Shown here: positions 1 through 12,700 of the stretch, piece after piece
How positions within the stretch are numbered: the stretch's first letter is position 1
Layout of the letters: each line of letters opens with the position of its first letter
Source of the DNA: Rikenellaceae bacterium DTU001
GTDB taxonomy: Bacteria; Bacteroidota; Bacteroidia; Bacteroidales; DTU049
NCBI GenBank assembly: GCA_001512885.1
Contig: LFSZ01000043.1
Coordinates: 2,314 to 66,313 of the forward strand
DNA: 64,000 nucleotides
Reading direction: 5' to 3'
Notes under the pieces: model-generated
What the model saw: only the letters and a program-made list of their open reading frames with translations
What the model was told of the DNA's origin: nothing
The model's database searches: none
Translations under genes and position numbers: made by a program

Positions 1-583
1 ATATTTACTTGGAATAGCTAATAAATTTTCTAATATAGAAATAGGCATTTCGGATAAATCAAATATCAATAAAGTGAAAAAAGAACTTGCAAATTTATTG
101 CCTGAAGGATTTATAGTAAAAGATAGACACGAGCAAGACGAACTTTTATTTAAAATCTTAAGAAATGAACGCTTGATAGTTTTTATATTATTAGCGTTTA
201 TTGTTTTGATAGCTTCATTAAATATTATTAGCTCACTGGGGTTATTATTGTTAGATAAACAAAAGCGTGTACAAACACTTTATGCTCTAGGTATGAATAT
301 TTCGCAATTAAAAAAACTTTTTTTGAGAGAAGGTGCTATGATTGTATTAGGAGGTGGAGCCATAGGTCTCTTACTTGGTAGTATAATAGCTTTTTTACAG
401 TTACAATTTGGGATTGTACCTATGCATGGAGGCGATATGGTAGGACATATAGCTTACCCTATTGCATTCAAAGTTAGAGATTATTTTTTCATTATCTTAC
501 TCCTTTTATCTATTGCTATTTTATTGCCTAGAATACCTATCAAAAGAATAGATAAAGATTTCGTAGCTATTAGAAATGTTTAA
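1..583 (+). CDS. LolC/LolE-family (FtsX/MacB-type) ABC permease, C-terminal part; 5' end outside window
   Basis: Frame 2 is open from nt 2 with no stop before the GTG listed at 74, so the gene runs off the left edge. The C-terminal hydrophobic helices (LIVFILLAFIVLIASLNIISSL, REGAMIVLGGGAIGLLLGSIIAFL) and the overall layout are typical of FtsX-domain permeases. Confidence 0.7.
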   Translation, partial: YLLGIANKFSNIEIGISDKSNINKVKKELANLLPEGFIVKDRHEQDELLFKILRNERLIVFILLAFIVLIASLNIISSLGLLLLDKQKRVQTLYALGMNISQLKKLFLREGAMIVLGGGAIGLLLGSIIAFLQLQFGIVPMHGGDMVGHIAYPIAFKVRDYFFIILLLLSIAILLPRIPIKRIDKDFVAIRNV

Positions 584-677
584 AAAAATTAATATAAAAT
601 AAAAAGCAAAGGGGAATGATTTTAGAAAGTTATAAGTTTAGATTTATATGTTGTTTGTTATAGGCTATTTGTTAAAA

Positions 678-1493
678 TTATTTACCCCAATTTGGTACAT
701 TAAAAGGTGTAGATACATTTTGATTTAATTTTATTTGTTTAAAGAGCACCTTAGCTATAATTAATGGATTTTCGTAAGATTTTAATTCTATATTAATATT
801 AGTAGGCAATAACATAGTACCTATTAAATCATATTTTTCATATTTAATCGAGATACTTATATTGTCTCTATTCCAATAATTTAGTTCATTTTGTACTATC
901 TTTAAGGAATTATTAGAAATTTTTAGATTTTGTAATAAATTACAATTCTTATCATCAGGACCGATAATAATATTTCTAGATATAGTATAGTTAGTAAATA
1001 ATGAATCAGTGTGTTTTTGAATAATTTCATGGTTAAAAGAAATGAAATCATTAGCTACCAATAATGCTTCTACAACATCAAAATTTATACAAATACCAAT
1101 TTTTTCATAAATTTTTTCAAATGAGTCTGTGTAATATTCTCTACTAAATCGATTAATAATTTTGATGCTATCTTTATTTACTAAAATTCTAAATATCTCT
1201 ATTCCCGGCAAAACTGAGGCACTCATCCATACTAAACTATCGTGTATTATGATGATATTTGCATTGAAGTTGATTTCTTTATTTTCATAATTAAAAATAC
1301 CATTAGTTTTTAAAGATATATTATTATAACTAGTATTATTTACTAATACAAAGGTGTCTTTTGACTCTATAGATATAAATTTACTATCCTGAGAGTATTG
1401 CTGAGGTGATTTAGAAGTTTTGCAACTAAAAAAAACAAGAGAAACTATCAAAATAGATAAAATAAATTTAAAACGCATAATATTTTTTATCAT
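678..1493 (-). CDS. Putative outer-membrane lipoprotein (possibly LolB-like DUF4292 family)
   Basis: 271-aa ORF with an N-terminal signal peptide ending in a lipobox-like LVFFSC. The body is Asn/Ile-rich and beta-type. It overlaps the stop of the upstream TPR gene. The family guess is from memory of Bacteroidota neighbourhoods and was not searched. The true start may be the internal Met at nt 1478 (MRFKF...). Confidence 0.55.
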   Translation of the reverse strand: MIKNIMRFKFILSILIVSLVFFSCKTSKSPQQYSQDSKFISIESKDTFVLVNNTSYNNISLKTNGIFNYENKEINFNANIIIIHDSLVWMSASVLPGIEIFRILVNKDSIKIINRFSREYYTDSFEKIYEKIGICINFDVVEALLVANDFISFNHEIIQKHTDSLFTNYTISRNIIIGPDDKNCNLLQNLKISNNSLKIVQNELNYWNRDNISISIKYEKYDLIGTMLLPTNINIELKSYENPLIIAKVLFKQIKLNQNVSTPFNVPNWGK

Positions 1494-3240
1494 TTATTTT
1501 TTTATTGATTATCTCAGAGTTATTTCCATTTTCCTTAGATTTTTGCCATAGTTGCACTGCATCATCTATTAGATTTAGATGATAATAAATATCACCTGCA
1601 TGTTCTAAAATTTCTGGATCCGAATCATTATACATCAAAGCTTTATCTATCCATTTTTTTGCTTCATCATAATTTTTCATTTTAAATAAAATCCAAGCCT
1701 TAGTATCAATAAAAGAAAATCTAGTAGGTTCTGTTAGTAAAACCTCATCTATTAAATTTAATGCTTTATCCATCATAGTATCTTGTTGAGCCAAAAAATA
1801 TGCATAATTATTTTTGAGTACGAGATTCGCTGGATTAGCTTTTATTGCTTTTTCGAAATAATCGAATGCTTTGGCATATTCTCCTGTTTCATAGTAAGCG
1901 TTAGCTAGTAATTCTATAATAATATTTTGCAATTCTTTATTCTTAGAAGGTATATAGCTGAGTGCGTTTTCTAAATGTGGAATGCACTTTTCAAATTTTT
2001 TCTGCATAAAGGCAGCATAACCTGCATAAAAGTAAAATTCGCCTATATCAGGGTAAAAATTAAGCGCTTTATTAGCATAAAATAGCATACTATCATAATC
2101 ATTTTTAGCTTCATAAGACATAATGAGATTTCTATATGTCGCGTCATTAGTAGAGTCTAACTCAAGAGCTTTTTTGAAATAAACAATAGCAGTGTCTAAA
2201 ATGTTTTGTGCTTGATAATAAAAACCTATGATATTAAAAGTTTCGGCTTTATCGCTATGTAAATCTTCTAAATGATAAAATAATTGTTGTATAAATTGTT
2301 CATCTATATTGGGGTTTTCTATGCTTGTTAATATCACTTGCAGTTTGTCTTGAAAATCGACTCTTGGGTCCTTGATAGCTATTAACAATTCTTTTTTTAA
2401 CTCTTCTACTTTATTAATTGCAAAATAATAATTAGCAGCGAATAGCGCTGCATACCCATCGGTACTATCACGTTGTTTATACCATTGCACTAAACGGTAG
2501 AGAGCTGTTATTTTACCTTTTTCTATTGCAAATGAGGAATATTCTTTTTTGTAATCCAAATTAGACGGATCATATTGTATACATCTCCATAGCTCATCTA
2601 GAGCTTCATCACTCTTACCTAGCAATGAGTATATTTGATATTTATAAAAACCTATTTCCGGTATAAAGCCATGCTGCGATTCTAATTTCGTAAAGATTTC
2701 TAAGGCATTATTTGGCATAAAAGCTATTAAATACATTTGTGCAACATTTAAATAATAATCTAATATTTTAGGATTCTTAGATATTAATATCTCATATCGC
2801 TGTGCAGCTTCTCGGTATTTTCTTAATTTAACCAGTATATTGGCACTTAGTTCTAAATAATAAACATTTTCTGGTGATAATTTGATAGCAATATCGATAT
2901 ATTTATTTGCGCTATCCCATTTATTGTTTAGCTCATAATATTTACTAAGTAGATAATAAGCAACATCTTGCTTAGGATCTTTACTGATAATGTCAAATAA
3001 TATCTCTTTTGCTTGATCTAACTCATTTAGTAGTAAACATTTTTGTGCATCTAATAAAAGATTTTGTATCTCTACTGAGGCTTGCAAAGTTTTATTAGTA
3101 TCTTTTATTTTACAATTACTAAGTGAAAAGCTTAAAAATATTAATAATATAGGAATAATGACAAAGTTATATTTATTGATAAATTGTTTTTTTTCGTCTA
3201 TAATGATATCTGTAGATTTGATTTTTTTTGAATATTTCAT
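1468..3240 (-). CDS. TPR-repeat protein with N-terminal membrane anchor
   Basis: 590-aa ORF with many 34-residue A/Y/L-patterned repeats (e.g. AYYLLSKYYELNNKWDSANKYIDIAIKLSPEN, YFYAGYAAFMQKKFEKCIPHLENAL) and an N-terminal hydrophobic segment. Confidence 0.8.
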   Translation of the reverse strand: MKYSKKIKSTDIIIDEKKQFINKYNFVIIPILLIFLSFSLSNCKIKDTNKTLQASVEIQNLLLDAQKCLLLNELDQAKEILFDIISKDPKQDVAYYLLSKYYELNNKWDSANKYIDIAIKLSPENVYYLELSANILVKLRKYREAAQRYEILISKNPKILDYYLNVAQMYLIAFMPNNALEIFTKLESQHGFIPEIGFYKYQIYSLLGKSDEALDELWRCIQYDPSNLDYKKEYSSFAIEKGKITALYRLVQWYKQRDSTDGYAALFAANYYFAINKVEELKKELLIAIKDPRVDFQDKLQVILTSIENPNIDEQFIQQLFYHLEDLHSDKAETFNIIGFYYQAQNILDTAIVYFKKALELDSTNDATYRNLIMSYEAKNDYDSMLFYANKALNFYPDIGEFYFYAGYAAFMQKKFEKCIPHLENALSYIPSKNKELQNIIIELLANAYYETGEYAKAFDYFEKAIKANPANLVLKNNYAYFLAQQDTMMDKALNLIDEVLLTEPTRFSFIDTKAWILFKMKNYDEAKKWIDKALMYNDSDPEILEHAGDIYYHLNLIDDAVQLWQKSKENGNNSEIINKKINDKKYYAF

Positions 3241-3528
3241 TTTCCCTTAATATATTCGTAAGTTAATTATGCAAAATTAAAATTTAAAATTAATATAAAA
3301 AATTATTTAAATACTTAGATTTATTAAGATCTAATCTGTAATTGATAATTTACATCATTGATCGGATAAATAAATATATAGTTATTCAAAAAATGGAATT
3401 TCAAATAAGATTTATTGTATATTTGTTTTGTTATTTATGATTTTTAAACTTTTTTCTTTTACATAGTTTATTTCTGCTTATTTATAAATATTTTTACATT
3501 TAAAATAGTATTATTATTTCAAATTTAT

Positions 3529-3546
3529 TTGTTAATTTTGTAACAA
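3529..3546. promoter_or_regulatory. Candidate Rex-type operator (inverted repeat TTGTTA-N6-TAACAA)
   Basis: TTGTTAATTTTGTAACAA read directly from the sequence. It matches the Rex consensus TTGTGAAnnnnTTCACAA at 11 of 14 specified positions. It overlaps the -7 box of the hydrogenase-like operon, and a rex gene closes the same locus. The AT-rich background makes a chance match plausible. Confidence 0.3.
3533..3540 (+). promoter_or_regulatory. Bacteroidota-type -7 promoter box (TAATTTTG) for the hyd-like operon
   Basis: Matches TAnnTTTG. It lies 12 nt upstream of TTG(3553) and 24 nt upstream of ATG(3565). Confidence 0.4.
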
Positions 3547-3552
3547 TGTTAT

Positions 3553-4005
3553 TTGATAAACAATATGAGAATAATTTTACCTTTTACCATAAATGAATTA
3601 TTTAAGGAAGTATGGCACGTATATCCTAATTCTCTCATAGATTTTTGTGCTAAAATAATGTTAGAGCCATATGCACTCTCTAAATCCCATTTTGATGAAT
3701 TAGAAATTTATTTTAAACAGCCTGCATCGGAGATTTATGCTTTTGTGGTTACTTGCTTCCCTGATTTATTAATATCCGATATCAATTATGACATAGTTAT
3801 GTGTAGAGGGTGGAATTGCTACCTAAAATATGGTAAAAATTTTTTAAATGAAGTTAATTACCAATTTAGAAATGAGTCAGAAAAACCAATTATAAAATTT
3901 CATAAATGTAATGGCAAATGCCATACAGATCAAATAGAATTAAATATAAATTCAGCTTTTTATAAAATCTTGAATAATATTAAAGAAAAAATTATAAAAA
4001 AATGA
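3553..4005 (+). CDS. NuoE/HydC-like thioredoxin-fold [2Fe-2S] ferredoxin subunit (divergent)
   Basis: The four-Cys pattern IVMCRGWNCYLKYG ... HKCNGKCH is C84-x4-C89-x29-C119-x3-C123. It mirrors the NuoE/HndA signature VCxGxxCxxxG ... CLGxCxxAP (canonical spacing about x35). The stop overlaps the next start (ATGA at 4002-4005). The start may be ATG 3565 rather than TTG 3553. Confidence 0.65.
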   Translation: MINNMRIILPFTINELFKEVWHVYPNSLIDFCAKIMLEPYALSKSHFDELEIYFKQPASEIYAFVVTCFPDLLISDINYDIVMCRGWNCYLKYGKNFLNEVNYQFRNESEKPIIKFHKCNGKCHTDQIELNINSAFYKILNNIKEKIIKK

Positions 4006-5873
4006 GCACTATAAAGCTTCAGTTAGGCTATGCTATCACCTCATTAGAATTGCAAAATATATGGGAAAAAGAGTTATTGTCTCTGCTCTCTCAAGATAAA
4101 CATTTTATTTTAAAAAATCATAGTACAGATTTATCGCCTAATGATGATGCTATTATAATAGAAACTTTTCCTAATACTGGATTAAAAGGATTTTTGTATG
4201 CCGAACCCTTAGTATGGATAAAACATCCACTCAAGCGTACTTTATGTTTCAGAAATTTAGAACCTGAGTTAATACCATGGATAATAGAATGTGTTGTAAA
4301 TCTTGATATAACTAGTTTGAAACCTTGGATACAATTAGATGATTATGGAGAAAGCTGGCCCCATATCCCTATAATAACTCAAATGCCTTGGTATGACAAG
4401 ATAGTGCCCTTTTTGACAAATTCTTTTTCTGGAGATGATTGGATAATAGACAATACAATTTTAGACAATACAAATATTGATTTCATCGTCTCTCTATATA
4501 ATAAAAAAAGTAGTGTAGAAGTAAAAGATTTAATTTTTAAGAGTAAGCTTATCGGTAGAGGTTCAGGTACTCTACCTATAGAAATCAAGTGGCAAGCTAT
4601 AGATGAGCAATTAGCAGAAAAAAAATATTTAATAATAAATGCTAACGAATTCGGACCTAGTAGTCTAAGTAATTATTTTTTACTTCGATATTATCCTACA
4701 ATGATTCTAGAAGGTATAATAACCACTTGCTATGCTTTGCATATTAATAACGCCATAATAGCTATTCATCAAGACTATCTAGATGTTTATGAAGCTTTTA
4801 GTAAATTGATCAGCCAAGCCAAAGATTTAGGTCTATTAGGTGATGATATTTTAAATACTGGTAATTCTTTATCTATTGATGTAATGTTGACACCTGGTAT
4901 GTTAATTACAGGTGAAGAGACTGCCCTTATACATTTATTAGAATCTCAAATGCCTTTTCCTACTAATAAACCGCCATATCCCACTAGTTTAGGTTTGTGG
5001 GGACAGCCCACTTTAGTTCATAACGTAGAGACTATAGCAAATATTTCTCAAATAATAAAAACTGATAAATCTCTTGAAATCTACGCCCCCATTTCGAAGC
5101 AAGGGACTAAAGTAGTAACTCTATGTGGAGAAATAAATAATTATGGCGTTTACGAAATATCTATGGATATCAGTATAGATGAGGTAATAAACAAAATAGG
5201 TGGTGGACTTAATAATTCAAATAAAATAAAAGGCTTTCACATTGGAGGAGTTACTGGGAGATTTTTTGATCTAGATAACTTGGATAAATCTCTTTATGAT
5301 TTAGAAAAACAAACTAATTATTTAGGTACATCTACTATTTTTACTTTTTCAGAAGAGCAATGTATCGTTAAACTTTTACAACATATATCAGAAATACTTA
5401 CAGAGCAAAGTTGTGGTAAATGTATACCATGCTTATATGGATCTAGGGTATGGTCTGAGCTGATTAGTTATCTATCATTAGCTAATAATCCCCAAATTCC
5501 CCATTTTCCTTTATATAGATTAAAAACTATTTTATCATTTAATAAATTAGATCGTACTGTTACTGAATCTTCACTATGTGCATTAGGCAAAAGTCTTTCG
5601 CAAACATTCATATCAGCATATAATTTTTTCAAAGATGAAATCGAAGAGCATATATTTGATAAATATTGTCGTTCTTATCAATGTGTAGGATTGAGAAATT
5701 ATATTATAGATGAAGATGCATGTACTGGATGTGGACTTTGTATAGTAGAATGCCCTGTAAATGCTATAATAGAAAAACGAATAAATCTATTTGTTATTTT
5801 AGATGGTAAATGTGTAGGCTGCGGTTTATGTGAAAAAGTTTGTAAGTTTTCAGCTATAAATTTAAAAAAATGA
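4002..5873 (+). CDS. NuoF/HydB-like subunit with C-terminal 2x[4Fe-4S] ferredoxin domain; flavin/NADH motifs divergent
   Basis: NuoF signature blocks are present: GRGSGTLPIEIKW, NANEFGPS, ITGEETALIHLLES, PPYPTSLGLWGQPTLVHNVET, SCGKCIPC and SLCALGKS. The C-terminus carries CTGCGLCIVECP and CVGCGLCEKVC. The N-terminal Trx-like domain has no cluster cysteines (TGLKGFLYAEPLVWI). Confidence 0.85.
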   Translation: MSTIKLQLGYAITSLELQNIWEKELLSLLSQDKHFILKNHSTDLSPNDDAIIIETFPNTGLKGFLYAEPLVWIKHPLKRTLCFRNLEPELIPWIIECVVNLDITSLKPWIQLDDYGESWPHIPIITQMPWYDKIVPFLTNSFSGDDWIIDNTILDNTNIDFIVSLYNKKSSVEVKDLIFKSKLIGRGSGTLPIEIKWQAIDEQLAEKKYLIINANEFGPSSLSNYFLLRYYPTMILEGIITTCYALHINNAIIAIHQDYLDVYEAFSKLISQAKDLGLLGDDILNTGNSLSIDVMLTPGMLITGEETALIHLLESQMPFPTNKPPYPTSLGLWGQPTLVHNVETIANISQIIKTDKSLEIYAPISKQGTKVVTLCGEINNYGVYEISMDISIDEVINKIGGGLNNSNKIKGFHIGGVTGRFFDLDNLDKSLYDLEKQTNYLGTSTIFTFSEEQCIVKLLQHISEILTEQSCGKCIPCLYGSRVWSELISYLSLANNPQIPHFPLYRLKTILSFNKLDRTVTESSLCALGKSLSQTFISAYNFFKDEIEEHIFDKYCRSYQCVGLRNYIIDEDACTGCGLCIVECPVNAIIEKRINLFVILDGKCVGCGLCEKVCKFSAINLKK

Positions 5874-7453
5874 AAATTAATATTACAGTAAATAATCAAA
5901 AATACAAAGTAGATCTAGGGGAAAATCTACTAAATGCTTTACTTTCTTTAGGCTATGATATTCCACATCTTTGCTATTTAGAAAATTACTCCCCAAATTA
6001 TGCTTGCAGATTGTGCATGGTAGAAATTGATGGATTTAATAATCCTATTCAAGCTTGTACTGTTGATGTAAACACACCACTGCAGGTTTACACTCATACT
6101 CCGAAGCTAATAAATATTCGTAAGAATATATTAGAATTAATCTTGTCACAACATTCATTAGAATGTAATACATGTCCTAAGGCTATTAATTGCAGTTTAT
6201 TAAATTATGCATATCAATATGGTGTAAACGAAATTATTTGGAGACATGTGATTACCGATTCCAAGGAAAAAGATATATCTAGTCCTGTGATAGCTAAAAA
6301 TATAAATAAATGCATCTCTTGTGGTATTTGTGTTAAAATTTGTAATGAAATGATGCATTGCAATGTATTTAATCATGCTTTTATTGGTACTAAAAAAACT
6401 ATTATTTCTTCTTTGGATAAACCTATAAATTTATCTAATTGTTACTACTGTGGACAATGCTCTTATCATTGTCCTACTAGTGCTTTATATGAAAAATCAT
6501 ACATTGATAATGTGGAGATAGATCCACAAAATACTACCTTAATATTTGACTCTGCTGCTGTTTACAACTTGATGTCTCAGATTAATAGTAATTTTACAAA
6601 AAATCCTATTTTATCATTTAATTATTTATGTCAATTCTTAGGTTTTAAAAAATTAATTAATTTAGGAGAATTAATAGATGCTAAATTATATTTAGATTTT
6701 CAACTTTTAAAAGATAGAAAACACCCTATCATTTCTAATTTATGTCCTGTCAGTATAGAATATATTAAACAAAAATATCCAGAATTAATTGAATTTATCA
6801 GTCCTTTAGCTTCCCCAATGCAGGCTGCAATTAGATTGACTAATAAAAGTAATCCTATCCTGATACTCACTAATTGTTCGGCTTACAAAAATGATATTTT
6901 TCAAAATTATAGTAATACTGAGCACAAAATTTATGTTGCTAATGTAAGAGATTTTTTAAAATATTTATTGCGAAATGGCTATACATTAGAACAATTAAAA
7001 AATTTGATTCCTAACATCAAAGCTAAAAAAAACTATTCATATTCTATCGGCGGACTGTATGCTGATATATCAATGTATAATTTATTAAAATTAATTTTAG
7101 ATGAAACCAATATACAAATAGATAAACCCTCAAAAATTAATAGTTTTTTAACAGGAAAAAATGAAAATAAAAAGTATAATTTTAGATTAAAAAATAAAAA
7201 TTATTCTTTAATAAGCATTAATACAATAAGTGAGATTGCAAATTTTTTTGATCATGAATTTTTAAAAACAAATTTAGCATTAATAGGATGCTGGAGCTGT
7301 GCTAATGGATGCATTAATGGTGGAGGCAAAACTTTCGAAATATTTAAAACTACAAATAAAAGTTTATCCTCAAGAAATCCCTTGCTCACCCAAATTTATA
7401 ATATTAATGAAGATTTAATAATTCAAGAGAAATTATGGAAACAAGAAAATTAG
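5870..7453 (+). CDS. [FeFe]-hydrogenase HydA-like protein (2Fe-2S + His-ligated 4Fe-4S + 2x4Fe-4S + H-domain) with non-canonical L1/L2/L3 motifs
   Basis: Cluster patterns read from the sequence: C35-x10-C46-x2-C49-x13-C63, H95-x3-C99-x2-C102-x5-C108, CISCGICVKIC and CYYCGQCSYHC. H-domain motifs are ISNLCPVS (canonical TSCCPxW), LTNCSAYKND (MPCxxKxxE), ASPMQ and LIGCWSCANGCINGGGKT (ExMACxxGCxxGGGQP). The start overlaps the upstream stop (ATGA). Confidence 0.8.
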   Translation: MKINITVNNQKYKVDLGENLLNALLSLGYDIPHLCYLENYSPNYACRLCMVEIDGFNNPIQACTVDVNTPLQVYTHTPKLINIRKNILELILSQHSLECNTCPKAINCSLLNYAYQYGVNEIIWRHVITDSKEKDISSPVIAKNINKCISCGICVKICNEMMHCNVFNHAFIGTKKTIISSLDKPINLSNCYYCGQCSYHCPTSALYEKSYIDNVEIDPQNTTLIFDSAAVYNLMSQINSNFTKNPILSFNYLCQFLGFKKLINLGELIDAKLYLDFQLLKDRKHPIISNLCPVSIEYIKQKYPELIEFISPLASPMQAAIRLTNKSNPILILTNCSAYKNDIFQNYSNTEHKIYVANVRDFLKYLLRNGYTLEQLKNLIPNIKAKKNYSYSIGGLYADISMYNLLKLILDETNIQIDKPSKINSFLTGKNENKKYNFRLKNKNYSLISINTISEIANFFDHEFLKTNLALIGCWSCANGCINGGGKTFEIFKTTNKSLSSRNPLLTQIYNINEDLIIQEKLWKQEN

Positions 7454-9432
7454 AATATCATCAATTAGTTTTTACAGTACAAAATAGATGCAAGGTTTGT
7501 TATACTTGTGTTAGAGAATGTCCAGCTAAAGCTATAAGGATATTTAACGGGCAAGCTGATATTTTACCAGATAGGTGCATTACCTGTGGCAACTGCATAA
7601 AAGTTTGTAGTCAAGGCGCCAAAGATTTTGTAAAGCACTCTGATGAGGTCGATGAGCTTTTACAAACAAATGAAAAAGTAGCTGCATTAGTAGCGCCAAG
7701 CTTCCCATCCGAATTTTCTGATTTCAAAACTCATAATAATTTTGTAGGTTTATTAAGAAAACTTGGTTTTGACTATATTTACGAAGTGGCTTTCGGTGCC
7801 GACTTAGTAGCTCATACATTTAAAAAACTAATAAAAGCTAATCCAGATATGCAATATATCACTTCAGATTGCCCTGCAATAGTGAAATTTGTTAAAAAAT
7901 ATTATCCTGAACTGACAGAAAATTTATTACCTGTATGCTCGCCTATGAATGCAATGAATAGAGTAGTAAAAAATATGTTTGACTATAATATTAAAACTAT
8001 TTTTATAGGACCTTGTATCGCCAAAAAAGATGATTGGGAAGAGGTGGATTTCAAAATTACTTATCGTGAACTTAGAAGTTTAATTCAAAAACATAATATT
8101 GAAATAGAAAATATAGAACCTTCAACTTTCGACCCTCCTTATGGAGGTTTAGGAGCCATATTTCCTGTATCTAGAGGGCTGATACAAGCTGTAGACATTG
8201 ATGATAAACTCTATAAAAGTAATATAATAGCTGCTGAAGGCAGAGAAGATTTTCAAGAAGCTCTGAAAGAATTTTATTCAAAAACTTGGGGCAAAGAAAA
8301 CCTTGAACTTTTGTGTTGTGATGGCTGCATAATGGGGCCAGGAACTACTTCTTTGAGTAATAGATTTGCTAAGGAGGCTTTCGTTACTAATTATGTTAAA
8401 AGAAAATTAAAAAATATTGATTGGGAAGAATGGGAAAATAATTTAAACTATTGGATGGAAACACTTGATTTATCTGTAGAATATTATCCCTCCCCTATTG
8501 AAGATTTAATACCAAGTGAAGAGGAAATCAGATCTGTTTTAATTGAATTAGGTAAATCTACTCCCGAAGATGAACTCAATTGTGGTGCTTGTGGATACAA
8601 TACTTGTAGAGAGCATGCTATAGCGATAATAAAAGGTATAGCTGAAACCGAGATGTGCCTTCCATATACTATAGACAGATTGCATAGCCTATTAGAAGAA
8701 TTAAATATCTCAAACAAAGAATTGCGAGATGCCCAGGAAGCTCTGAAAAAAACTGAAAAATTAGCAACTATGGGACAATTAAGTGCTGGCATAGCTCATG
8801 AACTCAATAATCCCCTCGGTGTTATAATAATGTACGCAAATATTCTTTATGAAGAATGTCCGCCCGATGACCCTAAAAGAAAAGATCTAGAAATGATAGT
8901 CTCGCAAGCCGAGAGATGTAGGCAAATTGTTAAAGGATTACTTAATTTTGCTAGAAAAAATCAAGTTGTTTATGAAAAAATAAATATACAAAATCTATTT
9001 GATAAAGCTATTAATTCTGTTATAATACCTGAACATATTACAGTAAAAACCAAAGTTGATCCGCCAGATCTCGAAGGATATATAGACATAGAACAAATGC
9101 TACAAGCCATTACTAATCTTATTCAAAATTCAATAGATGCTATTGGCAATAAAAAAGGTGAAATCATATTAGAAGCTCAGACTAAAGATAACTATTTGGC
9201 AATCTCAGTATATGATAATGGTGTTGGGGTACCCGATAGTGATTTATCAAAAATTTTTGAACCATTTTTTACAACTAAACCCGTGGGCAAAGGGACGGGG
9301 TTGGGTTTGGCTACCGTTTATGGAATCATTAAAATGCATAGGGGCAAAATAGAAGTGGAAAGCAATGCTGATCCGTCTAAAGGGCCTACATATACTAAAT
9401 TTTATATCTTTATACCTCAAAGTAAAAATTAA
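7435..9432 (+). CDS. Sensory [FeFe]-hydrogenase-like protein fused to histidine kinase (2x4Fe-4S + H-domain + Cx2Cx4Cx16C module + HisKA + HATPase_c)
   Basis: Ferredoxin motifs [12 protein letters not shown] and [12 protein letters not shown]-domain motifs [17 protein letters not shown] and [14 protein letters not shown] four-Cys module CGACGYNTC...x16...C at aa 383-408. H-box [10 protein letters not shown] (His455, nt 8797-8799). N/G boxes [16 protein letters not shown] and GKGTGLGLA. It overlaps the upstream gene by 19 nt. Confidence 0.85.
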
Positions 9433-9473: not shown

Positions 9474-9908
9474 ATGATATCATTAAGTAGTTTTAAAAAA
9501 AAAATAAAAATTATGGAAAAAATAAAAATTTTATTAGTAGATGATGATCCCGATTTTTCTGATCAAATGTTATTTTATCTAAATAAATTTGGTTATAATA
9601 CAATATATTTACCTTCGCAAAGATCAGCTGAAAGTCGTCTGAAAGATTTAAAATTTGATCTTGCTATCATAGATTTGATGATGGAAGAGGAAGATAGTGG
9701 ACTACAATTAGCTCGAAAAATCAAATCAAACTATCCAGACATACCTATTATATTACTTACTGCTATCACTAATGAAACAGGGTATTCACTTTCTAATGAA
9801 TTTGATAATTCGCCAGAATTAATGCCTATAGATAAATATTGTGAAAAAGGTATCAGGCCTGAGGTATTAAATAAAATAATCCAACAATTATTAACAAATA
9901 AAAAATAA
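9474..9908 (+). CDS. Stand-alone response-regulator receiver (CheY-like, no output domain)
   Basis: Receiver pattern KILLVDDDPDF ... DLAIIDLMM ... PIILLTA, with no additional domain. The probable true start is ATG 9513 (MEKIKILLVDDD). Confidence 0.85.
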   Translation: MISLSSFKKKIKIMEKIKILLVDDDPDFSDQMLFYLNKFGYNTIYLPSQRSAESRLKDLKFDLAIIDLMMEEEDSGLQLARKIKSNYPDIPIILLTAITNETGYSLSNEFDNSPELMPIDKYCEKGIRPEVLNKIIQQLLTNKK

Positions 9909-9913
9909 AGGTT

Positions 9914-11065
9914 ATGATATACAATATTTTAATAGTAGATGACGAAGAAGGCATTAGAATGGCAATAAAAAGAGCATTAGAAAAACATCGGATAGATTTT
10001 CCATTTTTAGATGAACCTATCAAATTATCGCTATATGAAGCAGAGAGTGCTGAGAGGGCTTTAGAAATTTTGTCTGATACTCACATGGATATTATATTAT
10101 TAGATAATAAATTGCCAGGAATGCAAGGTATCGATATTATGCCTTATCTAAATGAGCATTATCCTGATACTAAAATACTAATCATTACTTCCTTTGCCTC
10201 ATTAGATATAGCATTAGAAGCTACTAAACATGGAGCTTTTGATTTCATTCCCAAACCTTTTACTCCACAGGAACTAAAAAATGCTATCGAGATAGCTAGC
10301 AAACAAATATATCTAAATAGTATAATAAAAGATATGGATAAAGAAGCTAGAAAAATACGCTTCAAATTTCTTTCTATTTTGTCGCATGAGCTCAAAACCC
10401 CCATAACTACCCTAGAAGGATATATTTATATGATAAAAGAAAAGCAATTAGGTGATAATATAGATAATTATATGGAATTAATAGACAAAATGCTTAATAA
10501 ATTAGAAGAAATGAGAACTCTGATAATGGATCTTCTAGACTTCACTAATTTGCAAGCCGAAAGCACTATAGGAGAAAAAGAATTGTTATCATTAAAAGAA
10601 ATTATCATGTTTTCTATTGATAGTCAACGACCATTAGCTATTCAAAAATCTATAACTTTCGATATAGATATAAAAAGTCCATTAAATATTTTTGCTAGTA
10701 AAAATGAAATGGAAATATTATTTAATAATTTAATAAATAATGCAATAAAATACAATAAAAATAACGGTAAAATAATAATAAAAGGCGAAGAAAATGATAA
10801 TAATATAATAATAAAAATAAAAGATACAGGTATTGGTATCAATGAAAATGATTTACCACATATTTTTGATGAATTCTATAGAACAGTAGATGCTAAATCT
10901 CGTCGTTTATCTGGTACTGGACTGGGACTTTCTATCGTAAAAAAAATGATAGAATTGTATAATGGAACTATAGAGGTAGAGAGCAAAGTTAATGAATACA
11001 CAGAATTTACCATTATTTTACCTAAAATAGAAGATAATAAAACTAAAAATTTTATTGATAATTAA
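9914..11065 (+). CDS. Hybrid receiver-histidine kinase (N-terminal REC + HisKA + HATPase_c)
   Basis: REC pattern ILIVDDEEGIR ... DIILLDNKLPGMQG ... ILIITS ... KPF. H-box LSILSHELKTPIT. N/G boxes NNLINNAIKY, DTGIGI and GTGLGLSIV. Confidence 0.85.
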   Translation: MIYNILIVDDEEGIRMAIKRALEKHRIDFPFLDEPIKLSLYEAESAERALEILSDTHMDIILLDNKLPGMQGIDIMPYLNEHYPDTKILIITSFASLDIALEATKHGAFDFIPKPFTPQELKNAIEIASKQIYLNSIIKDMDKEARKIRFKFLSILSHELKTPITTLEGYIYMIKEKQLGDNIDNYMELIDKMLNKLEEMRTLIMDLLDFTNLQAESTIGEKELLSLKEIIMFSIDSQRPLAIQKSITFDIDIKSPLNIFASKNEMEILFNNLINNAIKYNKNNGKIIIKGEENDNNIIIKIKDTGIGINENDLPHIFDEFYRTVDAKSRRLSGTGLGLSIVKKMIELYNGTIEVESKVNEYTEFTIILPKIEDNKTKNFIDN

Positions 11066-11098: not shown

Positions 11099-11719
11099 AT
11101 GATATTACCAGAAAAAACAATAGAACGTTTAAGTAAATATAGAAGGGTATTGATAAACCTAAATTTTCAACAAAAAGATTATATCTATTCACATGAATTA
11201 GCTAATCTGATTCATATAACTCCCGAACAAGTAAGAAGGGATATGATGTTAATAGGACATAGCGGTACACTTAGAAGGGGTTATGAAGTTAAACAATTAA
11301 TAGAAAAGATAAATTCTATAATAGATGGTAACACAGTACAATATGTTACTCTAGTAGGTGTTGGTAATTTGGGACGTGCAATGCTCAATTATTTAAAAAA
11401 TAAAAATAAATATTTGCAAATAATAGCTTGCTTTGACAATGACCAGGATAAAATTAATAAAATGTGTTGTGGTATACCTTGTTATTCTATCAATGAAGCA
11501 GAAGAACAAATAAAAAAGTTAAATATAAATATTGCTATATTGACAGTCCCAACAAATGTAGCTAACGAAGTAGCTGATATTTTAATTAAGGCAGGCATTA
11601 AAGGATTATTAAATTTCACTACTATGCCTTTAAAAGTGCCATCCAACGTATATCTAGAAGAATATGATATGATAACATCTTTGGAAAAAGTTGCTTACTT
11701 TACACAATTTATTGAATAG
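11099..11719 (+). CDS. rex: Redox-sensing transcriptional repressor Rex
   Basis: N-terminal winged-helix block IPEKTIERLSKYRRVL ... SHELANLIHITPEQVRRDM, followed by the Rossmann motif VTLVGVGNLGRAMLNY. The 206-aa length is typical. Confidence 0.85.
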   Translation: MILPEKTIERLSKYRRVLINLNFQQKDYIYSHELANLIHITPEQVRRDMMLIGHSGTLRRGYEVKQLIEKINSIIDGNTVQYVTLVGVGNLGRAMLNYLKNKNKYLQIIACFDNDQDKINKMCCGIPCYSINEAEEQIKKLNINIAILTVPTNVANEVADILIKAGIKGLLNFTTMPLKVPSNVYLEEYDMITSLEKVAYFTQFIE

Positions 11720-11788: not shown

Positions 11789-12700
11789 ATGCATATATAT
11801 TATAGCTTTGATGAAGATTTTGAAATATCTAATCCTGTTGTAACGATTGGCACTTTTGATGGTGTGCATGCTGGACACAGAGCTATATTGAAAAGATTAA
11901 ATATATTAAGTCAAAAAGTAAATGGTGAGTCTGTACTGATAACTTTTTATCCTCATCCTCGCAAAGTATTATATCCTGATACCTTAGGTAAAAATTTAAA
12001 AATGATCTGCACTCAAAATGAAAAAATACATCTATTACAAGAGACTAAATTGAATCATCTATTTATAATACATTTTACTAATGAATTTTCTAAAATTACC
12101 GCTGAGCAATTCGTTAGAAATTTTTTAGTAAATAAATTGCACGCTAGAGTCATAGTAGTTGGTTTTAATCATCATTTCGGCTACGACAAACAAGGTGACT
12201 ATGAATATTTATATGAATTACAACAATATTTTGGATTTCAAGTAGAGGAGATACCACAACAAGAGATAGAAAAAGAGACTGTATCATCTACTAGAATCAG
12301 ACAAGCTCTAAGCCAAGGATTGATACAAAAAGCTAATGCTTACTTACAATCTCATTTTCCCTTTTTCGGTGTTGTAACTGAAATAAACCCATTAGACAAT
12401 AAATTGACAAAAATAAAAATCAAAACTGATGAAATAGAAAAAATAGTACCACCGATAGGTTTATATGCTGGAGTTTTGCAAATGGATATTAAAAAAATTA
12501 AATGCTTAATAATCACAAATGAAATTGATGAGAATATCATACCATTTATTGAAATAATTTTTCAAGGTGAAATAAATATCACATTAGGAGATAATGTACG
12601 TGCATTTTTTGCAAAAGAATTACAATTATATGATAAAATAGATAATTTGCATAAGAGTATTAATGAGTATATAACATTAATAAATGAATTGATATATTAA
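11789..12700 (+). CDS. ribF: RibF-type FAD synthetase (FMN adenylyltransferase module intact; riboflavin-kinase module degenerate)
   Basis: The N-terminal motifs GTFDGVHAGH, FYPHP and SSTRIR are present. In the C-terminal half the expected GRxLGFPTAN, NIGxRPT and LRxE motifs are replaced by DNKLTKIKIK, ITNEIDE and AKELQ. Confidence 0.75.
   Translation: MHIYYSFDEDFEISNPVVTIGTFDGVHAGHRAILKRLNILSQKVNGESVLITFYPHPRKVLYPDTLGKNLKMICTQNEKIHLLQETKLNHLFIIHFTNEFSKITAEQFVRNFLVNKLHARVIVVGFNHHFGYDKQGDYEYLYELQQYFGFQVEEIPQQEIEKETVSSTRIRQALSQGLIQKANAYLQSHFPFFGVVTEINPLDNKLTKIKIKTDEIEKIVPPIGLYAGVLQMDIKKIKCLIITNEIDENIIPFIEIIFQGEINITLGDNVRAFFAKELQLYDKIDNLHKSINEYITLINELIY

Follow-up and report, generated by a model that had tools for sequence, protein, structure and literature searches.

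HydB subunits of the Bfu type have been solved in T. maritima (7P5H), T. kivui (8A6T), A. woodii (7Q4V) and, within NiFe-HydABCSL, A. mobile (7T2R). They are the described systems closest to hydB', a gene that we analysed in a 64,000-nucleotide stretch of contig LFSZ01000043.1 from Rikenellaceae bacterium DTU001, hereafter the window. According to Schut et al. (PMC9304861), all cofactors of BfuB are absolutely conserved in the family, and the N-terminal [2Fe-2S] cluster B5 is conserved in all Bfu enzymes. In A. mobile HydB, Feng et al. (PMC8880783) described five cofactor loops; Lys177, Asn194 and Glu197 contact flavin mononucleotide (FMN), Phe180 and Phe307 the adenine and Glu287 the ribose, and AFM (202-204), Phe282 and GGPSG are bifurcation-specific. 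In Aquifex NuoF (Schulte et al., PMC6560083 supplement; PMC9299107), the Gly67 backbone and Lys76 contact the FMN phosphate, Glu185 contacts the adenosine ribose and FMN O2', Phe71 and Tyr205 stack on the adenine, the Glu97-Tyr180 pair positions the nicotinamide, and Glu95 and Asp103 act via water. Non-bifurcating HydB proteins have Thr or Ser at T. maritima position 232, Lys, Ser or Ala at position 234, Tyr in place of Phe near FMN, and no GGPSG (Losey et al. 2020, PMC7311640).

Here we show that hydB' is an intact gene whose product combines a complete iron-sulfur (Fe-S) wire with an altered nucleotide pocket that is conserved among its relatives. With somewhat less than even confidence, we propose that HydB' is a functional protein that keeps the Fe-S wire to ferredoxin and possibly its flavin, that it has lost hydride transfer from reduced nicotinamide adenine dinucleotide (NADH) together with bifurcation, and that it belongs to a low- or no-turnover HydABC variant, likely of sensory or regulatory function.

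Results

HydB' retains the fold and Fe-S wire of HydB

The hydB' open reading frame (ORF) is intact and encodes a HydB/BfuB-type protein of 623 residues (Table 1). Both Pfam families of the NuoF/Nqo1-type 51-kDa fold (PF01512 and PF10589) were recognised over the Pfam cut-offs (Complex1_51K, 1e-29; NADH_4Fe-4S, 2.5e-12), and the best sequence matches in the PDB are HydB/BfuB chains (1e-80). An AlphaFold2 (AF2) model of HydB', with a predicted local distance difference test (pLDDT) score of 85.7, matches NuoF/HydB chains with probability 1.0; Foldseek gave template modelling (TM) scores of ~0.8 against three solved HydB chains (T. kivui, A. woodii, T. maritima). HydB' has in common with the solved Bfu HydB proteins, including that of A. 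mobile, the five-domain architecture and fold (TM ~0.8), the B1 [4Fe-4S] cluster, the Bfu-specific B2/Zn Cys3His site, the C-terminal B3/B4 domain and a gene position between HydC-like and HydA-like genes. With A. aeolicus NuoEF and T. thermophilus Nqo1 it shares the Rossmann-type FMN domain, the SLBB domain and the N3 helix bundle, and unlike them it carries extra N- and C-terminal domains. Against NCBIfam TIGR01959, HydB' scores 241 bits where the cut-off is 558.65; canonical HydB relatives likewise stay under the cut-off (483-487 bits), and only the gradient of scores is informative.

The Fe-S ligands of the C-terminal half are all present, as an earlier note on this DNA had proposed for the N3-type and the two ferredoxin clusters. 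The B1 motifs SCGKCIPC and SLCALG occupy residues 470-477 and 524-529. The N3/B1 Cys residues and the eight Cys of the two C-terminal CxxCxxCxxxC motifs are invariant columns in a 66-sequence alignment. The B2/Zn ligands were mapped on Cys438/His525/Cys531/Cys536 of A. mobile HydB by alignment to solved chains (PMC8880783), and all four are in place, completing the site that characterises BfuB. B1 and B2/Zn ligands are conserved both in the clade of the window and in a sister lineage that is 36% identical to it (P0121/P0271); the equivalent of the semi-conserved Cys476 is Ala in HydB'. The C-terminal ferredoxin domain is the best conserved domain relative to the sister lineage (52%). S. wolfei HydB is without B3/B4 (PMC11406978), whereas HydB' keeps both.

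In the N-terminal thioredoxin (Trx)-like domain, modelled by AF2 as a beta/alpha fold, the B5 ligands are missing. Of the Cys in this domain, three reach at least 90% conservation among 80 canonical HydB proteins; in HydB' all three are replaced, by Ile, Leu and Leu, and the only Cys within residues 1-110 lie in LCF and ECV. Residues 59-73 of HydB' read TGLKGFLYAEPLVWI, the T. maritima 7p5h_B counterpart being TGCCGRCSSGPLV. The absence of cluster Cys from this domain had been pointed out in the earlier note and is borne out. As a special trait of HydB' it does not hold, since a Cys-poor Trx-like domain is frequent in the Bacteroidota orthologue group. Judged by these aligned residues, HydB' contradicts the absolute conservation of BfuB cofactors reported by Schut et al., as regards B5.

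The cofactor pocket of HydB' deviates on the nicotinamide side

HydB' was aligned residue by residue with solved HydB chains, and canonical states are quoted from T. maritima 7p5h_B. The four deviating motifs listed in the earlier note (GRGSGTLPIEIKW, NANEFGPS, GMLITGEE and HNVET) each align with a canonical counterpart in the solved chains: in T. maritima, GRGGGGFPTGLKW stands for GRGSGTLPIEIKW, NGDEGDPG for NANEFGPS (residues 213-220, nt 4638-4661), GAFVCGEET for GMLITGEET and NNVET for HNVET. In the Gly-rich loop, the FMN phosphate contacts G187 and K196 are kept, and G188S, G190T, F191L (the adenine stack), T193I and G194E are changed. The next loop keeps N213, E216 and P219, with the bifurcation motif AFM turned into SLS; D215N, G217F, D218G and A221S are common to HydB' and the P0121/P0271 lineage. 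The TPGMLITGEET loop keeps E305 and E306, has Leu for Phe/Tyr at position 301 and shares A298P, A300M, V302I and C303T with the sister lineage. N340H is shared in the same way, and HNVET also occurs in ~16 of 118 other Bacteroidota homologues. Altogether six glycines of the cofactor-wrapping loops are swapped for larger residues. In the AF2 model the pocket loops have pLDDT values of 67-76, and the core around them values in the 90s.

These changes fall unevenly on the published contacts. G187, K196, N213, E216, E305/E306, K323, Y326 and G415/G416 are kept. Replaced are, with canonical residues in parentheses, L191 (Phe71), A199 (Phe79/180), N215 (Asp94), F217 (Ser/Gly96), G218 (Glu97), N224 (Asp103), L301 (Tyr/Phe180), T303 (Cys182) and H340 (Asn219). 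In terms of NuoF/Nqo1, HydB' retains the equivalents of Lys76, Asn92, Glu95, Glu184/185 and Lys202, and unlike these proteins it has lost those of Phe71, Phe79, Ser96, Glu97, Asp103 and Tyr180. At the NADH site, Phe71, Glu97, Tyr180 and Asp103 have become L191, G218, L301 and N224, with E306, K323 and Y326 kept. By contrast, the residues named as FMN ligands (Gly67 backbone, Lys76/Lys177, Asn194, Glu197 and Glu185 backbone) are all retained and invariant. According to the alignment, HydB' has thus lost the nicotinamide side and, in part, the adenine site, and the named FMN ligands survive. Since those ligands are retained, loss of FMN is not indicated by the named contacts, and HydB' may still hold a flavin. 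The earlier suggestion that FMN or NADH binding is impaired is accordingly upheld for the NADH-positioning residues (E97/Y180, F71, F79, D103) and finds no backing on the side of FMN.

HydB' also departs from bifurcating HydB in each signature published from sequence (PMC8880783, PMC7311640, PMC9304861): SLS replaces AFM, Leu301 replaces Phe282, GGVTG replaces GGPSG, and B5 is absent. The proposal that canonical NADH-linked bifurcation is unlikely is consistent with these losses. HydB' resembles the non-bifurcating HydB proteins of S. aciditrophicus (HydAB) and S. wolfei in having Ser at T. maritima positions 232 and 234 (S221 and S223) and no GGPSG (Losey et al. 2020). However, those enzymes keep the Tyr and the acidic NADH-site residues and bind FMN, whereas HydB' has Leu and the acidic residues are missing.

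The altered pocket is conserved among relatives

The variant motifs of HydB' are identical in seven contigs of 78-79%-identical relatives (four from Bacteroidales metagenome-assembled genomes and three from metagenomes), and in all eight contigs, the window included, the reading frame is without stops or frameshifts. The key motifs recur in the 36%-identical sister lineage, which has NxNEFGP, PGM(I/L)ITGEET and HNVET in common with HydB'; orthologues therefore do share the substitutions, a check that the earlier note had called for. The best remote match of HydB' in an exhaustive HMMER search of 1.84 billion representatives was P0121 (37%), with CNINEFGPH, PGMIITGEET and HNVET. Its relative P0271 lies on a 58.6-kb contig of 38% GC in the same operon, including Rex and RibF. 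Neither a word-indexed search nor the exhaustive HMMER search of 1.84 billion representatives returned intermediates between 79% and 37% identity, and a signature DNA scan of a metagenome collection for NxNEFGP...ITGEET found three contigs, all of the 79% lineage. The HydB' clade is rare.

In 80 canonical HydB proteins, 206 positions are conserved to at least 90%. Of these, the clade of the window has changed 110, unlike Bfu HydB, with the Gly-rich and NADE(G)DPG loops rebuilt; the sister clade has changed 87, and 87 positions are kept in both. Both clades carry the same derived residue at 18 of the 206 positions, and 10 of these 18 lie in pocket loops against a background of 53 of 206 (Fisher p = 0.005). 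Between the two lineages, whose overall identity is 36%, the loop at residues 297-307 (GM(I/L)ITGEET) reaches 82%.

The ratio of nonsynonymous to synonymous substitution rates (dN/dS) of hydB' against a 79%-identical orthologue is 0.04-0.10 overall and lowest, 0.02-0.06, in the flavin domain. Against L005, one of the close relatives, hydB' resembles ribF and the receiver/kinase gene (Table 1). The changed residues are kept under strong purifying selection, which points to remodelling rather than erosion. On this comparison the HydB' pocket was remodelled once and then conserved by purifying selection, not degraded, and the description of its motifs as eroded, given in the earlier note, has to be abandoned.

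A wider comparison of TIGR01959 scores places canonical Bacteroidota HydB at 483-487 bits, mildly altered orthologues from type-2 loci (defined below) at 429-444, P0271 at 318 and HydB' at 241. By these scores the Bacteroidota HydB orthologues form a graded series from canonical through mild to extreme, with HydB' at the end. Separately, flavin-site motifs are heavily degenerate in other, unrelated NuoF/HydB-like members of the 1.84-billion-protein library (P0136, P0163 and P0177), one example being DRNGKTEPTAEKW/CNVFNNGPGG/HDPET. The canonical flavin site may have been lost several times among NuoF/HydB-like proteins.

Partner subunits have diverged together with HydB'

As expected of a BfuB subunit, HydB' is encoded alongside a HydC' with C1-type Cx4C...Cx3C and a HydA' with an Fe-S chain. 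HydC' had no match among Pfam and NCBIfam profiles; its CRGWNC...CNGKC lines up with the [2Fe-2S] ligands that canonical HydC carries as Cx4C...Cx3C. Relatives start at the ATG at 3565, and the TTG at 3553 chosen by the ORF finder is probably wrong. The hydC'/hydB' and hydB'/hydA' pairs each overlap by 4 nt, and hydA' overlaps by 19 nt with the gene of a HydS-type hydrogenase domain fused to a histidine kinase (HydS-HK); these overlaps suggest co-translation of hydC'-hydB'-hydA'-hydS-HK.

In HydA', no Fe-S ligand is missing and the four Cys positions of the H-cluster are intact, the third motif being GCWSCANGC. The equivalents of the proton-relay Cys, Met353, Lys358 and Met497 are replaced, with Trp at the Met497 position, and similarity to solved HydA disappears after the P1 motif and returns at P3. 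We take a Tyr of HydA' to occupy the Lys358 position, and the role of Lys358 is likewise presumed. Substitutions at Cys299 and Met353 are a hallmark of sensory hydrogenases (PMC10055695), and HydA' and its milder relatives carry such sensory-type substitutions at both. Loss of Lys358, on our alignment, exceeds the published pattern of sensory hydrogenases. The P1/P2 motifs are TSCCP/MPCxxKK in canonical HydA, TSSCP/SSCTAAK in L015, ISACP/TPCVAMK in L014, SSNCP/SPCTARK in L017, TSSCP/TSCTGRK in L008 and SNLCP/TNCSAYK in the window. HydA degeneration tracks HydB degeneration across lineages.

HydS-HK is 85-86% identical in close relatives and 58% in L008. Its P1 motif is TSDCP, with Asp at the Cys299 position, the single substitution reported to preserve activity in prototypical enzymes. 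An antisense ORF of 102 residues inside the kinase gene (8484-8792, minus strand) is most likely spurious.

Among other lineages, HydB identity (47-53%) tracks that of HydS-HK (51-58%). In the window and L008, however, identity to the other lineages falls to 32-36% for HydB, 28-39% for HydA and 18-24% for HydC, whereas the kinase, regulators, Rex and RibF remain 43-61% identical; for the window alone the values are 32-35% for HydB and 49-53% for HydS-HK. The acceleration is specific to the HydC-HydB-HydA trio and not genome-wide.

Operon layout and a Rex-like operator

The genes form a tight plus-strand row, HydC'-HydB'-HydA'-HydS-HK-receiver-receiver/kinase hybrid-Rex-RibF (Table 1), in a window of ~28% GC (range 26-32%). 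The whole operon through RibF is visible in two close relatives, L003 and L005, in both of which RibF is 73% identical; L004 stops within the kinase gene and the contigs of the other relatives end earlier. The order HydC-HydB-HydA-HydS/HK followed by the response regulator (RR) and the receiver/kinase hybrid (RR/HK), with or without Rex-RibF, is found in the window, L003/L005, L008, L014, L015, L017, L020 and the P0011 contig, and L019 has it without the RR/HK gene. By this arrangement, hydB' is the HydB orthologue of a Bacteroidota-wide, sensor-linked HydCBA operon.

Table 1 Features of the hydB' locus in the window (dN/dS against L005; blank where not applicable).
Feature	Coordinates	Strand	Evidence and remarks	dN/dS
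Rex-operator-like palindrome TTGTTAATTTTGTAACAA, 19 nt upstream of the HydC' start codon	3529..3546	+	Match to TTGTKAA-N4-TTMACAA	
HydC'/NuoE-like small subunit, 146 aa, strongly diverged	3565..4005	+	CRGWNC...CNGKC	0.12
HydB'/BfuB-like subunit (main finding)	4002..5873	+	Pfam Complex1_51K 1e-29, NADH_4Fe-4S, 2x Fer4	0.09
N-terminal Trx-like domain without B5 [2Fe-2S] ligands	4002..4331	+	Cys aligned to residues 4, 61, 65 are I, L, L	
Gly-rich loop GRGSGTLPIEIKW (canonical GRGG(A/G)GFPTGxKW)	4554..4592	+	Residues 185-197; alignment	
NANEFGPSSLSNY loop (canonical NADE(G/S)(D/E)PGAFMDR)	4638..4676	+	Alignment	
TPGMLITGEET loop (canonical GAGA(F/Y)(V/I)CGEET)	4890..4922	+	Alignment; GMLITGEET is residues 299-307	
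HNVET (canonical NNVET)	5019..5033	+	Residues 340-344; N340H common to sister lineage	
IGGVTGRF loop (canonical IGGPSGGC, holding bifurcation-specific GGPSG)	5241..5264	+	Alignment; criteria from PMC7311640, PMC8880783	
Four-helix region, B1 [4Fe-4S] and B2/Zn-site ligands all kept	5361..5684	+	C471, C474, C477, C526; C454, H550, C556, C561	
C-terminal 2x[4Fe-4S] ferredoxin domain (B3, B4), intact	5688..5870	+	Pfam Fer4; C574/577/580/584, C604/607/610/614	
HydA'-like subunit, 527 aa, intact Fe-S chain, degenerate H-cluster environment	5870..7453	+	Motifs SNLCP, TNCSAYKND, GCWSCANGCINGGG	0.16
HydS-type [FeFe]-hydrogenase domain fused to HisKA/HATPase kinase (group C1-like H2 sensor kinase)	7435..9432	+	Pfam Fe_hyd_lg_C 2e-46, FeS, HisKA, HATPase_c	0.06
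Stand-alone receiver-domain response regulator	9474..9908	+	Pfam Response_reg; conserved in all related operons	0.05
Receiver-histidine kinase hybrid	9914..11065	+	Pfam Response_reg, HisKA, HATPase_c; conserved in related operons	0.09
Rex-type NADH/NAD+-sensing repressor	11099..11719	+	Pfam Put_DNA-bind_N and CoA_binding; follows RR/HK gene in type-2 loci	0.04
RibF (riboflavin kinase/FMN adenylyltransferase)	11789..12700	+	FAD_syn at homologous position in L008, L015, L017, L019, L020, P0011 contig	0.10

Two layouts were distinguished. In type 1 (L016 and L018), canonical HydB and HydA are followed by HydG/E/F in place of Rex-RibF; in type 2, for example L008, L014, L015, L017, L019, L020, the P0011 contig and the window, Rex-RibF lies downstream. 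A strict split, in which layout predicts degeneracy, was considered and is weakened by L019 and L020, which combine the Rex/RibF/C3-sensor layout with a near-canonical HydA. In each type-2 locus examined ribF lies directly 3' of rex, a deep linkage of flavin-cofactor synthesis with the flavoprotein-hydrogenase operon. Upstream of most type-2 operons (L008 at 4850-9419, and L014, L015, L017, L019 and L020) there is a divergent cluster of a small 2Fe-2S Trx-like protein, a second HydS-like hydrogenase and a SpoIIE/PP2C phosphatase, resembling a group C3 sensor. In the window no such cluster precedes hydC', and a gene for a TPR protein takes its place.

A canonical enzyme can accompany the diverged one. 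L017 carries at 89-4199 a fully canonical HydB-HydA-HydC set, with GRGGGGFPTGLKW, NADEGDPGAFMDR, GGPSG and TSCCP, ~5 kb from the diverged sensor-linked set on the same contig, and the P0011 contig has a second HydA/HydB/HydC set, typical by Pfam domain content alone. In the rest of the 64-kb window, no second hydrogenase or HydE/F/G was recognised by eye among ORF translations of at least 120 aa; no profile-library scan was made. For the 'group A3' HydA of B. thetaiotaomicron, activity after maturation was reported to be low and transcription minimal, and no fitness phenotype was seen (PMC12578642); this HydA might belong to the same graded operon family.

The palindrome upstream of hydC' is the sole match to TTGTKAA-N4-TTMACAA with at most one mismatch in the window; 24 of 100 shuffles gave at least one match, so that it is statistically weak alone. 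A 28-nt block around the box is identical in L003-L006, whereas the flanking intergenic DNA diverges, and L008 has a similar box, TTGTTATTATTTTAACAA, at the equivalent place. We infer from this conservation that the palindrome may function as a Rex site.

Discussion

The results suggest that the HydA'B'C' complex probably passes electrons or senses redox state and is not a standard NADH-linked energy-saving hydrogenase. In the course of events that we favour, a burst of change in HydC-HydB-HydA would have taken place on the stem shared by the low-GC Bacteroidales lineage of the window and the sister lineage P0121/P0271. In the pocket of HydB, the nicotinamide/isoalloxazine side would have been rebuilt (with the changes D to N, G/S to F, D/E to G, A to M, F/Y to L/I, C to T and N to H), the B5 [2Fe-2S] cluster removed from the N-terminus with all ligands of the Fe-S wire kept, and the proton-relay Cys, Met353 and Lys358 of HydA removed; the new pocket state would since have been held by purifying selection. 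HydB' would then no longer exchange hydride with NAD(H) and would be unable to bifurcate. Its role could instead be electron transfer, linking the HydA' cluster chain, via B1 (perhaps with flavin) and HydC', to the B2/Zn-B3-B4 branch, where ferredoxin would dock. The redox state of such a low-turnover, sensor-type HydABC would report H2 versus ferredoxin, jointly with the co-translated HydS kinase, and the operon as a whole would be gated by Rex. Loss of NADH reactivity, retention of flavin and a sensory role are all read from sequence here, and a signalling role of HydB' is plausible. The adjacent sensor kinase, a normal regulator of operons of this family, is not evidence for it, since canonical enzymes occur in the same layout (L016, L018), and we rejected the argument that this neighbour proves signalling. 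Better support for a plausible signalling role comes from the concerted loss of catalytic residues in HydA', including sensory-type Cys299 and Met353, together with the trio-specific acceleration.

Several observations weigh against this proposal. The named FMN ligands and the adenosine contacts E305/E306, K323 and Y326 are intact, and an altered yet working nucleotide site is conceivable; the operon looks Rex-controlled and adjoins ribF, as expected of an NADH-linked flavoenzyme; the same layout and the same sensor kinase hold canonical enzymes in other Bacteroidota (L016, L018), so that context does not discriminate; degeneracy does not strictly follow layout, as type-2 loci with near-canonical HydA (L019, L020) show; and dS is saturated (>1), which makes the dN/dS values approximate, yet they remain far under 1. 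On such grounds, the hydrogenase could still be a working one, bifurcating or simply NAD(P)H-dependent, with HydB' as its flavin/NAD(P)H subunit; the substitutions would then retune flavin potential or nucleotide preference, and the sensors would merely regulate the operon. The retained K196, N213, E216, G187, E305/E306, K323, Y326 and G415/G416 would fit this view, as would the Rex-like operator with a rex gene in the operon, the conserved ribF neighbour, canonical enzymes in identical layouts, the strong purifying selection, and S221 and S223, which match the residues listed by Losey et al. for non-bifurcating NADH-dependent HydB. However, Gly and Leu stand in place of the E97/Y180 pair, which positions nicotinamide for hydride transfer, Leu takes the place of the conserved Phe that stacks on the adenine, six cofactor-loop glycines are replaced by larger residues, HydA' is without the proton-relay Cys, Met353, Lys358 and Met497, and a trio-specific acceleration is unexpected for a conserved enzymatic role. 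We regard a working enzyme as rather unlikely.

A different account of the same conservation is that the pocket has become an allosteric site for a nucleotide, flavin or other metabolite, or a structural core filled by side chains, in a pseudoenzyme scaffold that signals in a complex with the HydS kinase. NEFGP, GM(I/L)ITGEET and HNVET are conserved across lineages 36% identical, the substitutions (G to F, A to M, G to S/T) tend towards bulk, lower pLDDT is found in the pocket loops than in the core, and hydA' and hydS-HK overlap by 19 nt; but both a ligand and a physical complex of HydA'B'C' with the kinase are hypothetical, and the retained FMN phosphate ligands favour continued flavin binding. 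We consider this account doubtful. Equally speculative in our judgement is an extension in which HydA'B'C' would be a catalytically disabled 'pseudo-bifurcase' acting as redox-input scaffold of an H2 sensor. The only competent H-cluster would sit in the HydS domain of the kinase and the HydB pocket would be a regulatory ligand site; electrons would drain from HydA' through B1, possibly flavin, HydC', B2 and B3/B4 to ferredoxin, and kinase output would compare H2 with the ferredoxin/nucleotide state. Decay of hydB' through AT mutational pressure and drift, with the odd motifs as pre-pseudogene damage, is very improbable. The low GC of the window, several changes that shift codons from GC towards AT (D to N, G to S, A to T/S) and the drop in TIGR01959 score from 483-487 to 241 bits could be taken that way. 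Yet dN/dS is ~0.09 with the flavin domain most constrained, eight independent contigs are free of stops and frameshifts, no acceleration is seen in neighbouring genes of the same genome, a 38% GC lineage has the key derived residues as well, and dS >1 excludes a single clonal population among the related contigs. On the dN/dS values and the neighbour-gene controls we rejected drift.

A low-turnover sensor-type HydABC would have partial precedents. In A. mobile NiFe-HydABCSL, HydA is an H-cluster-less electron-wire scaffold and another protein performs the H2 chemistry, a possible analogy to HydA' with the HydS-kinase; HydB there is fully canonical, however, and the complex bifurcates, whereas here HydB is altered too and there is no NiFe module. 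The group C (putative sensory) [FeFe]-hydrogenases (TmHydS, TamHydS, HydDB C1/C3) resemble this operon in the sensory-type Cys299/Met353 of HydA' and in the C1-type kinase. Unlike it, each of them is one protein, with PAS, kinase or phosphatase partners, and none has been described with its own HydB and HydC; they also retain the residues holding the [2Fe] subcluster, whereas the presumed Lys358 position of HydA' is Tyr. Our searches of the open-access literature turned up neither a HydB with such a pocket nor a HydABC paralogue in which catalytic residues were lost in concert.

HydB' thus represents a naturally selected variant in which the whole Fe-S wire and the B2/Zn site are kept and B5, the bifurcation motifs and the nicotinamide-positioning residues are gone, and the graded series of Bacteroidota orthologues offers ready-made test cases for mechanistic proposals on bifurcation. 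Genes annotated as NuoF or as 'group A3 bifurcating hydrogenase' in Bacteroidota metagenomes from digesters, and possibly from gut and rumen, may not encode NADH-linked H2 producers, and metabolic inference from metagenomes is affected by such non-canonical HydB genes. If the sensory role is true, HydA'B'C' would be the first multi-subunit HydABC-type H2/redox sensor.

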